64,000 nucleotides of DNA from contig JAHJML010000174.1 in assembly GCA_018821365.1 (NCBI GenBank), forward strand, positions 10,067 through 74,066. The letters run 5' to 3'. The notes beneath the pieces were generated by a model, which saw nothing but the letters and a program-made list of their open reading frames with translations, was not told where the DNA came from and ran no database searches. Both the position numbers and the translations under genes were made by a program. Source of the DNA: Actinomycetota bacterium. Its GTDB lineage: Bacteria; Actinomycetota; Acidimicrobiia; Spongiisociales; UBA11373. This document shows positions 3,400 to 18,990 of this stretch, piece by piece. Position 1 is the first letter of the stretch; every line of letters begins with the position of its first letter.

Positions 3400-5448
3400 A
3401 TGAGCGCGTTGTTCGGCACCCTGGGGACCTGGGCGGCGCTCGCCTTTGCGCTCGTCTTGACGGTCAAGGGCTTCCTCGGTCTCTCCAATCCCGCCAGGTC
3501 TTCCGCCCGCAGCCTGGCGATCCCTGCCGTCGGCTTGCTCGTCTCGGCGGGGGTCGCCATGGCGGCTCTCGAGATCGGGCTGCTCACCGACGACTTCAGC
3601 GTCCACTACATCGCCAACAACTCCGCATCGACCACACCCTTCCTGTACAAGGCCGCCAGCGCCTGGGCCGCCCTCGAGGGGAGCCTGGTGCTGTGGGGCC
3701 TGGTGCTGGCTGCCTTCACCTTCTTCATCTGGCGGGCCATGCGCCGCCTGGAGGGACCCGACCCCCTGTGGGCGGGCGCCCTCGGCGTGATGGGCGTCGT
3801 CTCGGCGTTCTTCTTCTTCATGATGGTGTCCGTCTCCAACCCCTTCGAGGTGTGCACCCAGGCGGGATCCTTCGGGTTCGGCTGCGAGGCGGCCAGTGCC
3901 TGGCCCTTCTCCACCATCTCGGCTCCCCTCCACGGACTGGGTCCCAACCCGCTGCTCCAGAACCACCCTCTGATGGCGGTGCATCCACCGCTCCTGTATG
4001 TGGGGTATGTCGGCATGACGGCCCCCTTCTCGTTTGCGATGGCGTCGCTGCTGCTCGGCGAGAGCGGCGATCGCTGGCTCAGGGTCACTCGCAACTGGAC
4101 CCGGATCGCCTGGATCTTCCTGACGGCGGGTGTGGTGCTGGGAGGGCTCTGGTCCTACGAGGTCCTCGGGTGGGGCGGCTACTGGGCCTGGGACCCGGTC
4201 GAGAACGCGTCGTTCATGCCCTGGCTGGTGGCGACCATGTTCGTGCACACTGCCGCCCTCCAGATGCGCCGCGGCGTGCTGCAGGCGTGGAGCTATGCCT
4301 TGGTGATCGCCACCTTCTCCTTGACGATCCTCGGCACCTTCCTGACCAGGTCGGGAGTCATCAACTCGGTGCACTCCTTCACCCAGTCTGCGATCGGCCC
4401 GGTGCTCCTCTGGTTCTTGATGGCGGTGCTGGTGGGTTCCTTCGGCGTCTACGCGGCCCGCATCAATCGGGTTGGATCCGCTCCCCGCCTCGATTCGCTG
4501 GCCAGTCGCGAGGGCATGTTCATGATCAACAACCTGCTCCTCGGAGTGCTTGCGATCGTGGTCCTGGTGGGGACGCTCTATCCGCTGTTCGTCGAATGGC
4601 GCACCGGGGATCAGGTGGGGGTGGGCCGGCCGTTCTTCGATCGGATGGCGCTTCCGCTCTCCTTCGCCCTGCTGTTCGCCATGGCGATCGGTCCGATCAC
4701 CCCCTTCCGCAAGGCCAGTCCCCGGGTGGTGTGGGAACGGTTCCGCACCCCGATGCGGGTGTCTCTGTCTTTGGCCGCCCTGGCAGCCATCCTCTGGCGT
4801 CCCAACGGGTGGATCCTGTTGAGCGTCCTGGCTTCCACGTTCGTGGCGGGGACGGTGGTTCGGCAACTGTGGACGGCTGCTCGCAAGGGATCCGCCGCCC
4901 GGGGCGGCAACATCGCCGGTGAGGCGCTCGCCACCATGAGGAGGGACACCGCCTTCTGGGGTGGTCAGATCGCTCACGTGGGCATCGCCGTGCTGGCGCT
5001 CGGCATCGCCCTTTCCGCCAACGGGGCGGTGCGGGGCACGGTGGACGTCGACGAGGGGGTCCCGGTCGCCTTTGCCGGCTTCGAGTTGACGCTGGTCGAC
5101 AACTTCGAGCGCGACGAGCCGAACCGCATCCTGCGGGGGGCGGTGGTCGAGATCCGGCGGGGCGGCGACCTGGTCACCACCCTGCAGCCGAGACTCAACG
5201 AGTACCGCATCCGCGGCCAGCAGATTGCCTCTCCGGCCGTCGACACCGGGTTGCGGGGCGACCTCTACCTCTCGCTGGCCAGCGACCCGGGGGTGTTCCC
5301 GGTCGAATTGGATCTCTACTGGTTCCCGTTCATCTGGCTGGTGTGGACCGGGGGCTTCATGGCGGCCGCCGGCGGGTTGTGGGCCTGGCTGGTGCGGCCC
5401 CCCCGCCGCAAAGAGGCAGCGATCCCCGAGGGGGCCGCCCGTGTCTGA
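3400..5448 (+). CDS. ccmF: cytochrome c-type biogenesis protein CcmF (System I haem lyase)
   Basis: 682 aa polytopic protein with the WWD-type motif WAWDPVENASFMPWL and conserved His. RBS-like GGAGAGGG lies upstream. Confidence 0.9.
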   Translation: MSALFGTLGTWAALAFALVLTVKGFLGLSNPARSSARSLAIPAVGLLVSAGVAMAALEIGLLTDDFSVHYIANNSASTTPFLYKAASAWAALEGSLVLWGLVLAAFTFFIWRAMRRLEGPDPLWAGALGVMGVVSAFFFFMMVSVSNPFEVCTQAGSFGFGCEAASAWPFSTISAPLHGLGPNPLLQNHPLMAVHPPLLYVGYVGMTAPFSFAMASLLLGESGDRWLRVTRNWTRIAWIFLTAGVVLGGLWSYEVLGWGGYWAWDPVENASFMPWLVATMFVHTAALQMRRGVLQAWSYALVIATFSLTILGTFLTRSGVINSVHSFTQSAIGPVLLWFLMAVLVGSFGVYAARINRVGSAPRLDSLASREGMFMINNLLLGVLAIVVLVGTLYPLFVEWRTGDQVGVGRPFFDRMALPLSFALLFAMAIGPITPFRKASPRVVWERFRTPMRVSLSLAALAAILWRPNGWILLSVLASTFVAGTVVRQLWTAARKGSAARGGNIAGEALATMRRDTAFWGGQIAHVGIAVLALGIALSANGAVRGTVDVDEGVPVAFAGFELTLVDNFERDEPNRILRGAVVEIRRGGDLVTTLQPRLNEYRIRGQQIASPAVDTGLRGDLYLSLASDPGVFPVELDLYWFPFIWLVWTGGFMAAAGGLWAWLVRPPRRKEAAIPEGAARV

Positions 5449-5842
5449 GCGGGCGCGCAAGATCGCTGCTTGGGTGGTCACCCTCGGTCTGGTGGCAACC
5501 GTGGTCTGGGGCTTCCTGGCCGGCGAACCGACGGAGAGCGACCGGGTGTTCGCCCTCGGCGCCCGCATCAAGTGCCCGGTATGCCAGGGGGAGTCGATCC
5601 AGGAGTCGCCGTCGGAGACCGCCATGGCGATGCTCGACGTGGTGGCCGAGAAGGTCGAGGCCGGGCAGACCGACGAGCAGATCCTCGAGTACTTCACCGA
5701 TCGATACGGGGACGGAATCCGCCTCGATCCGCGCTTCGAGTTCCGAACGATGCTGCTGTGGCTGCTGCCGGCCGCCGCGCTGATCGGGGGCGGGTTGATG
5801 ATCTGGAGCCGGCGCCGCCGGCCGGGAGAGGAACCGTCATGA
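5441..5842 (+). CDS. ccmH: cytochrome c-type biogenesis protein CcmH
   Basis: GTG start overlaps the ccmF TGA (GTGTCTGA). N-terminal TM; the LRCxxC-type motif RIKCPVCQGESI; C-terminal TM. Confidence 0.8.
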   Translation: MSERARKIAAWVVTLGLVATVVWGFLAGEPTESDRVFALGARIKCPVCQGESIQESPSETAMAMLDVVAEKVEAGQTDEQILEYFTDRYGDGIRLDPRFEFRTMLLWLLPAAALIGGGLMIWSRRRRPGEEPS

Positions 5843-17443: not shown

Positions 17444-17625
17444 ATCGACCGGGTGTCGGATTCGCCGGTTCCGGCAGGGCATCGGCCGATCGGCATCGTG
17501 CTGGTGGAGCCCAGGGTTGCCTCCGCGGCGGAACCCGTGGCCGGGTCGATCTCGCGGTGGGGGCGCACCACCAACCGGGAGTCGACGCGGCGTCGTGACG
17601 GCTTCCCTGGCATCATGAGGCCTCC

Positions 17626-18990
17626 ATGACCGTCCGTCCCCCCACTCGCCGGCCCGAAGAGCGCTTCCCGGGATTCCTCTTCACCCCCGCCAATCGTCCG
17701 TTCACATTGATCCTGGTCGTTGCCGTGGCTGTCCTGGCAGGCTATCTGCTGGTGGGAGGCGACTCGGGATCGACGGCTGCCCCCTCCTCGACCACGGTCG
17801 CCGGGCCGGCGACCAGCACCGCCGAGACGGATTCCACCGCCGGGACCACCCAGGATGCCACCACCACCTCACCGACGGTCGCTCAATCGGGAGTCACCGA
17901 GGCGGCCGACATCCCGCTGCAGGGTCTGGCGCTGGAGACCGTGGCACGGGGGTTCACCTTCCCGGTCTACGCAACCTCGCCGCCCGGCGACGGGAGGGTG
18001 TTCGTTGTGGAACGGGCCGGCCTCATCCGCATCGTCGATCCCGGCGGGAGTGTGCTGCCGAACCCCTTCCTCGACATAAGCGACCGCATCGACAGCGCCA
18101 GCGGTATCGAGTTGGGCCTCCTCGGCCTCGCCTTCCACCCTCAGTACGCCGCCAACGGGCGTTTCTTCGTCTACTACTCGGATCTGAACGCCGACTCGGT
18201 GGTCGCCGAGTTCTCGACGAGCGCCGACCCGAACCTGGCCGATCCGGATTCCGAGCAGGAGATACTGTTCGTGGATCAGGTTCGCCTCCGCCACCGCGGT
18301 GGCATGCTGCTCTTCGGACCCGACGGCTACCTCTACATCGGCCTCGGCGACGGCACCGACCACAACGTGAACCCGCAGAACCTCGAGACCCTGCCGGGCA
18401 GCATCCTCCGCATCGACATCGACGGCGGGGATCCCTATGCGATCCCCGCCACCAACCCCTTCGCATCGGCCGAGGGCAGGCCGGAGATCTGGGCGTACGG
18501 GTTCCGCAATCCGTGGCGGTTCTCCATCGACCCCGTGAGCGGCCGCCTCTACGTCGGAGATGTCGGTGAGGAGTCGTGGGAGGAGATCGATTCCGTCGCT
18601 CTCTCCAACTCGGGGAGCAACTTCGGGTGGCCGCTCATGGAGGGGTCCACCTGCTTCACCGACGCCGAGTGCGGGAGCCGGACCGATCTGGTCCGGCCGA
18701 TCCTGCAGTACCCCCACGAAGGAGACCAGTGCGCGGTCACCGGCGGCTACGTCTACCGGGGGTCGGCGATCCCCGAGATGGTGGGGCACTACTTCTACGC
18801 CGACTGGTGCGCCGGGTGGATCCATTCGTTCCTCTACGACGGCGAGAACGTCACGCTGCCCCAGGATTGGTCGGTCTCGATCGGAACCGACCACGGGTCG
18901 ATCGCCTCGTTCGGCCTCGATGGTGCCGGTGAGTTGCTGGTGGTCACTTCCGACACCGGTGACATCTTCCGGGTGGTCGCGGCCCGTTGA
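17626..18990 (+). CDS. PQQ-dependent sugar (glucose/sorbosone) dehydrogenase family beta-propeller, membrane-anchored
   Basis: N-terminal TM, Ser/Thr-rich linker, then a sGDH-like propeller (GFTFPVYATSPPGDGRVFVVERAGLIRIV..., GFRNPWRFSID). Confidence 0.7.
   Translation: MTVRPPTRRPEERFPGFLFTPANRPFTLILVVAVAVLAGYLLVGGDSGSTAAPSSTTVAGPATSTAETDSTAGTTQDATTTSPTVAQSGVTEAADIPLQGLALETVARGFTFPVYATSPPGDGRVFVVERAGLIRIVDPGGSVLPNPFLDISDRIDSASGIELGLLGLAFHPQYAANGRFFVYYSDLNADSVVAEFSTSADPNLADPDSEQEILFVDQVRLRHRGGMLLFGPDGYLYIGLGDGTDHNVNPQNLETLPGSILRIDIDGGDPYAIPATNPFASAEGRPEIWAYGFRNPWRFSIDPVSGRLYVGDVGEESWEEIDSVALSNSGSNFGWPLMEGSTCFTDAECGSRTDLVRPILQYPHEGDQCAVTGGYVYRGSAIPEMVGHYFYADWCAGWIHSFLYDGENVTLPQDWSVSIGTDHGSIASFGLDGAGELLVVTSDTGDIFRVVAAR

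Follow-up and report, generated by a model that had tools for sequence, protein, structure and literature searches.

Introduction

Good understanding of electron export by multihaem cytochromes is limited to a few diderm models (Geobacter, Shewanella) and two thermophilic Firmicutes. Geobacter requires ImcH above about -0.1 V, CbcL at lower potentials and CbcBA, a four-transmembrane (TM) hydrogenase-type dihaem cytochrome b paired with a seven-haem cytochrome c that has a C-terminal anchor, below -0.21 V. Proteins of the CbcL/MtoC family are known from Fe(II) oxidisers and Fe(III) reducers alike. Among Gram-positive metal reducers, OcwA and OmhA are cell-surface cytochromes of the NrfA/ONR/MccA/HAO structural group, and OcwA serves as a surface terminal reductase. 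Here we compare with these systems a cluster of cytochrome genes in a 64,000-nucleotide (nt) window of an acidimicrobial metagenome-assembled genome (MAG; assembly GCA_018821365.1, contig JAHJML010000174.1, positions 10,067 to 74,066). We propose, with a probability of about 0.5, that the cluster encodes a branched quinol-to-cell-surface electron-transfer network ending at a decahaem lipoprotein, which we call c10.

How much of such a system would be new? The original prediction for this stretch, made from its letters and translated open reading frames (ORFs), stated that multihaem respiration modules are not a described feature of Actinobacteria. This is too strong. MAGs related to Coriobacteriia and rich in multihaem cytochromes have been noted earlier, CbcL homologues occur in Thermoleophilia MAGs and an ImcH homologue is found in Intrasporangium (PMC6295460), so that a claim of complete novelty for the phylum would be overstated. 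The iron-reducing Actinobacteria in culture, on the other hand, lack multihaem cytochromes, and surveys with current marker sets find almost no genes for extracellular electron transfer (EET) in Actinobacteria, a result in which search bias is suspected. The types of part are likewise known: ImcH, Cbc-type bc cytochromes, Rieske/b complexes, OcwA/NrfA-like surface cytochromes and Ccm. In the open-access literature we found no description of the c10 family or of its Chloroflexota and Acidimicrobiia operons, none of a heptahaem class-I extension of subunit IV, and only general MAG surveys for the cluster in either group, an absence that is not proof.

A haem-rich gene cluster

The genes between positions 3400 and 17362 form a tightly packed, real cluster for haem-rich proteins. 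ORFs of at least 80 residues with support from GC content at third codon positions (GC3) were screened for CxxCH across the window. Five c-type cytochromes were found, with 34 CxxCH and one CxxxCH between them: nine CxxCH in a nonahaem protein (c9), two in a cytochrome b with two c domains (cyt b), six plus the CxxxCH in an ImcH-like protein, seven in a fusion of subunit IV to seven c domains (SUIV-c7) and ten in c10. The 35 CxxCH of the original prediction are therefore 35 haem sites, one of them of different make-up. No CxxCH occurs in any other ORF of this kind in the window, and confinement to the cluster proteins places the density of haem motifs far beyond chance. Profile hidden Markov model searches (Pfam, NCBIfam), which had been proposed as a check, match the CxxCH-rich ORFs to multihaem c, Ni_hydr_CYTB plus PSCyt1, NapC/NirT, and Cytochrom_B_C plus six Cytochrome_CBB3 models. 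The word multihaem suits SUIV-c7 in that it has seven haem sites, but these lie in class-I monohaem domains and not in a packed multihaem fold.

All genes of the original prediction are present at the coordinates given for them. The cluster genes have a GC3 of 0.85-0.95 and the codon-position GC pattern of real genes, in a window of even GC content (0.63-0.72). The overlapping stop and start codons foreseen for the ccm genes measure 8 nt (ccmF/ccmH), 4 nt (ccmH/ccmI) and 4 nt (ccmI/ccmG), and c9 and cyt b overlap by 8 nt. Four genes are transcribed from the minus strand in the order c10, Rieske, b6 and SUIV-c7 (17362-15242, 15051-14578, 14576-13917 and 13912-11819). A promoter and terminator scan of the cluster gave nothing above shuffled expectation.

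The decahaem lipoprotein c10

15242-17362, minus strand: c10, decahaem lipoprotein with pentahaem modules at residues ~70-400 and ~405-706, lipobox IAAC (LVIAAC) and a Thr/Ala/Pro-rich linker

The two pentahaem modules of c10 are 47% identical to each other (E 8e-90), and the linker that follows the lipobox is about 35 residues long. Neither phmmer nor profile searches of PDB sequences gave a significant match to a solved structure, and no sequence similarity to NrfA, ONR or MccA appears even with a profile. A structure search places the predicted fold nearest OcwA, NrfA and OmhA, in which long C-terminal helices come after a haem domain; the model consists mainly of helix or coil, and no beta-barrel domains are predicted. 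Judged by this model, c10 is a tandem duplication of an NrfA/OcwA-like module. The original prediction of a lipid-anchored decahaem protein akin to the Thermincola surface cytochrome is borne out by the predicted lipoprotein signal and by OcwA as the closest match of the modelled structure. OcwA (Thermincola potens, 6I5B) and OmhA (Carboxydothermus ferrireducens, 6QVM) share with c10 the haem domain, the long C-terminal helices and an extracytoplasmic setting in a monoderm. They differ in having nine and eleven haems, where c10 has two times five by internal duplication, and in S-layer or cell-wall association in place of a lipoprotein anchor; sequence similarity between them and c10 is not detectable. 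All motifs of c10 are CxxCH and none is CxxCK. Each five-haem module has six invariant histidines outside the motifs, which fits ligation of every haem by two histidines and fits a haem with open coordination too.

Two other identifications were tried and rejected. The MtrC-family model PF22113 matches c10 with 29.8 bits (E 5.1e-7), below its 30-bit cut-off, and no MtrC-family structure is among the structural matches. MtrC, OmcA and MtrF of Shewanella resemble c10 in having ten haems in two pentahaem halves, in being lipoproteins and in the weak PF22113 match, but they have a staggered-cross fold with beta-barrel domains, which are not predicted for c10, and an MtrAB porin partner, which c10 lacks. 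ARMA_0580 of Ardenticatena, the only characterised Chloroflexota surface cytochrome, is a protein of 430 residues and 7 haems that does not belong to the c10 family.

Gene neighbourhoods of c10

The system is not peculiar to this genome: hundreds of Chloroflexota and Acidimicrobiia species share its core. The c10 family comprises at least 4983 clusters at 90% identity, with relatives in no fewer than 579 GTDB species genomes, most of them from Chloroflexota Anaerolineae. Modules were scored in the 120 best c10 homologues, gene order was compared in the best 79 loci and neighbours were counted over 80 loci. Ten haems are present in 107 of the 120 homologues and 14-15, in three modules, in twelve; the N-terminus is lipobox-like in 64%. 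Growth of the family by whole pentahaem modules, to 10, 14 or 15 haems, is the behaviour of a wire. The best 79 loci belong to Acidimicrobiia/Actinomycetota and, for the most part, to Chloroflexota (Anaerolineae, Ardenticatenaceae, Promineifilaceae, Caldilineaceae), some carriers being activated-sludge filaments.

A quinol-oxidising module (Cbc-type b, ImcH-like, Rieske/b6 or NrfCD-like) lies beside c10 in 65 of the 80 loci, and many of the other 15 are short contigs. The kind of module varies: ImcH-like genes occur in 30 loci, a c8-NrfC-NrfD-like module in 23 and Rieske/b6 in 14. The input modules change while c10 stays constant. This pattern marks c10 as a downstream partner shared by several quinol dehydrogenases, and it is the strongest argument for that role.

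Acidimicrobiia usually have (ccmABCE)-ccmF-H-I-G, c10, c9 and cyt b in that order and then the ImcH-like gene, which lies on the opposite strand in L009, L011 and L063 and on the same strand in L015. Of the Chloroflexota loci, 34 have the order c8, c14, cyt b and c10. A second species, at locus L002, has a c10 that is 74% identical, and it shares with the window both the cluster and the DUF2179, GSDH and amidohydrolase genes on its flanks. Neighbour joining of 77 c10 sequences, calculated without support values, gives a tree in which the Actinomycetota form one clade nested within Chloroflexota. The tree, which is suggestive at most, is consistent with a single transfer of c10 into Acidimicrobiia.

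The three-module versions of c10 are proteins of ~1030-1220 residues, with 15 CxxCH in P0003, P0007, P0023, P0025, P0030, P0046, P0113 and P0119 and 14 in P0005, P0016, P0017 and P0045; P0016 and P0113 also have bacterial Ig-like (Big_2) domains. P0119, from 'Candidatus Abyssobacteria', shows that the family is not confined to Chloroflexota and Actinomycetota. Paralogues of c10 stand in tandem in L045 (three), L049 (two) and L081:8001-12412 (two); L081, with P0076, is on a 10.1-Mb long-read metagenome contig (ENA ERZ21831104).

Predicted quinol-oxidising modules

10062-11666, plus strand: ImcH-like inner-membrane heptahaem cytochrome, 534 residues, three TM helices, CX3CH and six CX2CH; PF03264 and NrfH models
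7332-8456, plus strand: c9, nonahaem cytochrome c with N-terminal signal, C-terminal TM helix at residues 332-363 and nine CxxCH; Paired_CXXCH_1, Cytochrome_C7 and c3_2
8449-9888, plus strand: FdnI-type dihaem cytochrome b (residues 1-~260, 4-5 TM helices; PF01292 E 4.2e-14) with two C-terminal PSCyt1 monohaem c domains (E 5.1e-15)
14578-15051, minus strand: Rieske 2Fe-2S subunit with twin-arginine signal (TIGR01409) and boxes CTHLGC...CPCH; PF00355 E 9.5e-11
13917-14576, minus strand: cytochrome b6, the N-terminal half of a split cytochrome b, 219 residues, paired His in helices B and D; PF00033 E 3.5e-50
11819-13912, minus strand: subunit IV (PEWY, three TM helices) fused to seven class-I cytochrome c domains; PF00032 E 6.2e-14, Cytochrome_CBB3 x6 E 4.5e-59

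The ImcH family is defined by three N-terminal TM helices, an adjacent atypical CX3CH and six CX2CH in 495-519 residues (Zhong & Shi 2018, PMC6295460). Set beside Geobacter ImcH by this family description, the 534-residue protein carries exactly the published signature in its sequence, and the earlier view of a NapC/NirT-type heptahaem cytochrome that mirrors ImcH is upheld in TM count, CX3CH and six CX2CH alike. Hydropathy places the TM segments at residues 41-73, 77-108 and 128-154; an AlphaFold2 model, poor as a whole (predicted local distance difference test, pLDDT, 52.6), has helices at 45-70, 76-110 and 126-158. The atypical motif is CGEACH at 163-168, the CxxCH motifs start at 188, 237, 345, 462, 482 and 524, and all seven are invariant in 18 homologues. 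The NapC/NirT region is recognised by PF03264 (32.5 bits, E 9e-8, cut-off 24.1), by the NrfH model TIGR03153 (E 5.8e-15) and by NrfH 2j7a_C (E 5.4e-4). ImcH of G. sulfurreducens (GSU3259) has the same succession of three TM helices, CX3CH and six CX2CH, a NapC/NirT(NrfH)-like region, a length of ~500-530 residues and a gene that adjoins those of other c-type cytochromes. It differs in its setting, since the window host is a monoderm actinobacterium without periplasmic Ppc or porin-cytochrome partners. The ImcH-like family is very large (7714 hits). The closest named relatives of the window protein, 55-62% identical, are from Zixibacteria, Acidobacteria and Gammaproteobacteria MAGs, and identity near 60% across these groups indicates a gene widely shared between phyla. 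Among Acidimicrobiia, and likewise to Zixibacteria/Acidobacteria, identity is ~58%, versus only 31-38% with ImcH-like genes at Chloroflexota c10 loci. This pattern differs from that of c10, so the modules of the cluster have had different evolutionary histories.

The c9 and cyt b genes encode what is, by sequence, a split Cbc-type quinol oxidoreductase, and c9 homologues lie 5' of cyt b in 56 of the 80 loci. The b part matches FdnI (1kqf_C, E 1.6e-7), its H16, H58, H166 and H181 aligning with the FdnI haem-b ligands H18, H57, H155 and H169. Similarity of c9 to the DmsE/MtrA family is weak (TIGR03508 E 1e-12, below cut-off; 6r2q_A E 0.018). Compared with the Geobacter proteins by published description, the pair resembles both CbcL and CbcBA in parts and is strictly neither. 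CbcL (GSU0274), MtrH and MtoC likewise combine nine CxxCH in the c part with an FdnI/HydC-type dihaem b, but as a single polypeptide in which the c domain is fused to a dihaem b of about six TM helices; the window and all related loci have two ORFs. The parallel to CbcL drawn in the original prediction therefore stands for the nine c-haems and the FdnI-type b with its four aligned histidines, and fails for the fusion. CbcBA (GSU0593-0594) is similar in its separate dihaem b and its multihaem c anchored by a C-terminal TM helix. It differs in that CbcA has seven haems and supplies the fourth haem-b histidine from its TM helix, whereas c9 has nine haems and no His in its C-terminal helix, all four haem-b histidines being in the b subunit. 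The PSCyt1 extension of that subunit is present in Acidimicrobiia and absent from the Chloroflexota versions; an 8-haem and 14-haem pair takes the place of c9 in the Chloroflexota loci.

The third module had been likened to CbcBA, to whose organisation c9 and cyt b are closer. It is instead a bona fide Rieske/cytochrome b complex as far as sequence can tell, with the Rieske boxes, the two His pairs of b6 and the PEWY motif all intact. Its closest NCBIfam relatives are cytochrome b6 and Geobacter ExtP; b6 matches both below cut-off (PRK03735 E 1.8e-68, cytb_ExtP E 3.7e-66). Actinobacterial QcrCAB models also remain below the NCBIfam cut-off (QcrB 125 bits against 500, QcrA 44.5 against 275, QcrC 64 against 200), and QcrCAB has an unsplit cytochrome b and a dihaem QcrC where the window has a split b and seven c domains on subunit IV. 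Bacillus-type b6c and QcrCAB are Rieske/b complexes with one or two c domains. They provide the general plan of the window complex, with split b6 and PEWY subunit IV, a Rieske protein exported by the twin-arginine (TAT) pathway and class-I c acceptor domains, but differ from it in domain number, since seven stand in tandem on the window subunit IV. At the position that we take to be that of the haem ci Cys in b6f and Bacillus, the window protein has no Cys.

Class-I cytochromes with His/Met ligation have comparatively high potentials. In seven SUIV-c7 orthologues a Met is invariant after six of the seven CxxCH and a His after the second, which predicts mostly His/Met, comparatively high-potential haems. 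The fusion is rare: among 1.84 billion cluster representatives at 50% identity there is one full-length match, with a handful of shorter SUIV-poly-c variants. Rieske-b6-SUIVc7 directly adjoins c10 in the window and in L003, L010, L038, L044, L058 and L079, in both phyla, and the haem layout of SUIV-c7 is identical in L003, L010, L038, L058 and L079.

A further quinol module is seen in Chloroflexota and not in the window. Its three genes encode an 8-haem c, an NrfC-like 4Fe-4S protein exported by TAT and a membrane protein like NrfD/PsrC, and it is found in L012, L013, L022 (7477-8322 and the next gene), L030, L036, L039, L055, L066 and others. Genes for a small Cys-rich protein, a LuxR-type response regulator and HisKA_3 sensor kinases often come after it. 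In the Acidimicrobiia loci L003 and L006 the NrfCD-like pair adjoins a 6-haem class-I poly-cytochrome.

Cytochrome c maturation

3400-5448, plus strand: ccmF (haem lyase, System I), 682 residues, ~10 or more TM helices by hydropathy; PF16327 CcmF_C E 5.5e-61, PF01578 E 5.5e-30
5441-5842, plus strand: ccmH, 133 residues, CPVC motif, 8-nt overlap with the ccmF stop; PF03918 E 2.2e-30, gene call of the same length on L001
5839-6657, plus strand: tetratricopeptide repeat (TPR) membrane protein, ccmI-like by position, 272 residues, one TM helix, ATGA overlap with ccmH; TPR_19 E 1.1e-8
6654-7235, plus strand: ccmG/DsbE-type thioredoxin-like protein, 193 residues, WASYCIPC motif, N-terminal anchor; Redoxin E 9.9e-15, TIGR00385 dsbE E 1.7e-22, below cut-off

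The Ccm System I named in the original prediction is half present: ccmF, ccmH, the ccmI-like gene and ccmG are there, but ccmABCE are not in the window. Searches by tblastn gave no match for ccmB, ccmC or ccmE in the 64 kb. As ccmABCE adjoin ccmF in L008-L011 and L063, they are presumably elsewhere in the host genome. The TPR protein has no match to the CcmI-specific model of NCBIfam; a protein of this kind lies between ccmH and ccmG in L008, L009, L011 and L063 as well. Directly 5' of c10, ccm genes are found in L008, L009, L011, L015 and L063. The products of the co-located ccmFHIG genes would attach the 35 haems.

Proposed outward electron transfer and its alternatives

Why place three quinol-oxidising modules beside one decahaem lipoprotein? 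In the network that we propose, the ImcH-type protein, the c9/cyt b pair and the Rieske/b6/SUIV-c7 complex would act side by side as entry modules that oxidise quinol, probably menaquinol, and c9, the two PSCyt1 domains or the c7 chain would carry the electrons on to c10. With its lipid anchor and flexible Thr-rich linker holding it at the outer face of the cytoplasmic membrane, c10 could reach into or through the cell wall of a monoderm and hand electrons to acceptors outside the membrane, such as Fe(III) or Mn(IV) minerals, humics, partner cells or electrodes. By analogy with Geobacter, separate modules may serve separate acceptor potentials, the highest of them through the Rieske/His-Met branch. 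What we observe is gene content, the architecture of domains, conserved motifs, topology signals, predicted fold class and a neighbourhood conserved in two phyla; what we infer is that the modules and c10 interact physically, that c10 is exposed at the surface, which way electrons flow and what accepts them. Several points weigh against the outward network. The organism is known as a MAG and the system is predicted from its genes, and the likeness to Geobacter ImcH, CbcL and CbcBA is a likeness to published descriptions. NrfA-like folds also occur in enzymes, and the NrfH- and NrfBCD-like inputs around c10 are what nitrite reductases use. The His/Met domains and the Rieske centre imply relatively high potentials, which fit acceptors at the level of O2, nitrate or Mn(IV), or Fe(II) oxidation, no less than classical Fe(III) reduction. 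Many carriers are facultatively aerobic activated-sludge Chloroflexota and not classical metal reducers.

Could c10 be an enzyme? A tandem NrfA-like reductase or detoxifier of a soluble N- or S-oxyanion (nitrite, hydroxylamine, NO, sulfite or tetrathionate), supplied with electrons by the ImcH/NrfH-like, Cbc-type and NrfBCD-like modules as in Nrf systems, is the alternative that we take most seriously, although we consider it improbable. We do so because nitrite reductases use such inputs, the NrfH-type and c8-NrfC-NrfD-type neighbours paralleling NrfHA and NrfABCD, and because OcwA itself turns over nitrite and hydroxylamine; five haems per module is also the number in NrfA. Set against this are ten CxxCH and no CxxCK, invariant histidines sufficient for bis-His ligation throughout, and the lack of sequence similarity to NrfA, ONR and MccA noted above. 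The lipid anchor, the long linker and the modular growth from 10 to 15 haems suit a wire better, and further large multihaem cytochromes of 14-15 haems co-occur in Chloroflexota. Somewhat less probable still is inward flow, in which extracellular Fe(II) or Mn(II), reduced humics or a cathode would give electrons to c10, a terminal oxidase or nitrate reductase would receive them downhill by way of the His/Met c7 chain, and the Rieske/b6 complex, working in reverse as it does in acidophilic iron oxidisers, would reduce quinone to supply NAD(P)H and CO2 fixation. The high potentials expected of six of the seven c7 domains, the Rieske/b complex beside c10 in 14 loci and the occurrence of the CbcL/MtoC family in Fe(II) oxidisers as well as Fe(III) reducers would all agree with this, as would the anodic and cathodic EET of Ardenticatena, a Chloroflexota relative of many carriers. 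Yet the Rieske module is missing from most c10 loci, the window has no Cyc2, oxidase or carbon-fixation genes, and ImcH homologues have so far been tied only to quinol oxidation in reducers (PMC6295460).

The genes might also form no single system, with Rieske/b6/c7 as complex III of aerobic respiration, ccm as general machinery and the multihaem genes as independent neighbours. The absence of Rieske/b6 from most c10 loci, the clearly lineage-specific GSDH and amidohydrolase neighbours and the failure of the scan to find promoter or terminator signals that define operons would permit this, but we think it quite unlikely: Rieske-b6-SUIVc7 stands beside c10 in both phyla with its haem layout conserved, the heptahaem fusion adjoins c10 here despite being so rare overall, and several loci of Acidimicrobiia and Chloroflexota have ccm genes right beside c10. 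Origin of the cluster in a Gram-negative contaminant or a chimeric contig, named in the original prediction as what would refute it, has next to no chance of being correct. It has no direct support, the nearest thing to it being the ~60% identity of the ImcH-like protein to those of Zixibacteria, Acidobacteria and Gammaproteobacteria MAGs. GC content is uniform (0.65-0.72), and the cluster lies on one contig between lprG-MFS and uvrABC, rapZ, yvcK, pgk, tpi, rpsA and polA. The 120 best relatives of UvrB are 79-90% identical, and every named one, the best of these at 80-90%, is from an Acidimicrobiia or Actinobacteria MAG. An identical c10 protein is present in two independent NCBI assemblies of Actinobacteria/Actinomycetota MAGs, on contigs of 35 and 89 kb, L002 has the same cluster and flanks in a second species, and the Actinomycetota c10 proteins are one clade. 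GC, UvrB, L002 and the c10 clade together rule contamination out and confirm the predicted actinobacterial host.

The outward network, if it is functional, would have a wide environmental reach, and its genomic prediction is well supported by sequence. Acidimicrobiia and Anaerolineae are among the most abundant uncultured heterotrophs in sediments, aquifers and activated sludge, and these ubiquitous 'heterotrophs' would then have a part in Fe, Mn and humic redox cycling as well as in bioelectrochemical systems. Together with the Cbc-type pair and the ImcH-like gene, sometimes with Rieske/b6/c7 or an NrfCD-like module, c10 provides a concrete and conserved set of markers for Acidimicrobiia and Chloroflexota species that number at least in the hundreds. 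The heptahaem class-I extension and the tandem NrfA-like decahaem protein are of structural and evolutionary interest as regards the growth of multihaem proteins by duplication of modules. We further suggest, tentatively and as something that may well prove wrong, that Acidimicrobiia and Anaerolineae share an unrecognised monoderm-type EET pathway. Its lipid-anchored tandem NrfA-like c10/c15 would have come once from Chloroflexota, its quinol modules would be interchangeable and would include an unprecedented Rieske/b6 seven-domain His/Met 'wire', and high-potential Mn(IV)/Mn(II) or Fe(III)/Fe(II) would be respired or oxidised.

Flanking genes

17626-18990, plus strand: glucose/sorbosone dehydrogenase (GSDH)-family, pyrroloquinoline quinone (PQQ)-type beta-propeller, membrane-anchored and divergent, with N-terminal TM helix and Ser/Thr-rich linker; PF07995 E 1.4e-41

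The membrane-anchored PQQ-type dehydrogenase of the original prediction is divergent and anchored as described, but belongs to the GSDH family, whose name-giving members are soluble glucose/sorbosone dehydrogenase-like. A GSDH gene lies near c10 in the closest relatives only, adjacent in L002 (65% identity) and 7 kb off in L003 (53%), which makes its membership of the system doubtful.

The rest of the window holds lprG and its major facilitator superfamily (MFS) partner, gpmA, tpiA, pgk, yvcK, rapZ, uvrC, uvrA, uvrB, coaE, rpsA and polA. Just downstream of the cluster, on the minus strand at 21334-23074, is a steroid/polyprenol-reductase-like pair: a 3-oxo-5-alpha-steroid 4-dehydrogenase-family membrane protein (PF02544, E 2.9e-52) and an NAD-dependent epimerase/3-beta-hydroxysteroid dehydrogenase-like dehydrogenase. 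A 1038-residue M16 peptidase (pitrilysin/PqqF-like, a weak match) at 24065-27181 on the same strand adjoins tRNA-Leu(GAG) at 27154-27241. The operon of an Opp/Dpp-type peptide ABC transporter comes next (27286-34059, minus strand).

At 37874-40888 (minus strand), pgk and tpiA come immediately after rapZ and yvcK, with neither whiA nor gap seen between them; this arrangement differs from the usual actinobacterial order, rapZ-yvcK-whiA ... gap-pgk-tpi. The stretch at 57100-59600 has the lowest GC content of the window (~0.63) and few ORFs with coding-type GC3, and neither an Rfam family nor a tRNA was detected in it. A tRNA-Leu(CAA) gene is located just upstream, at 56004-56089.

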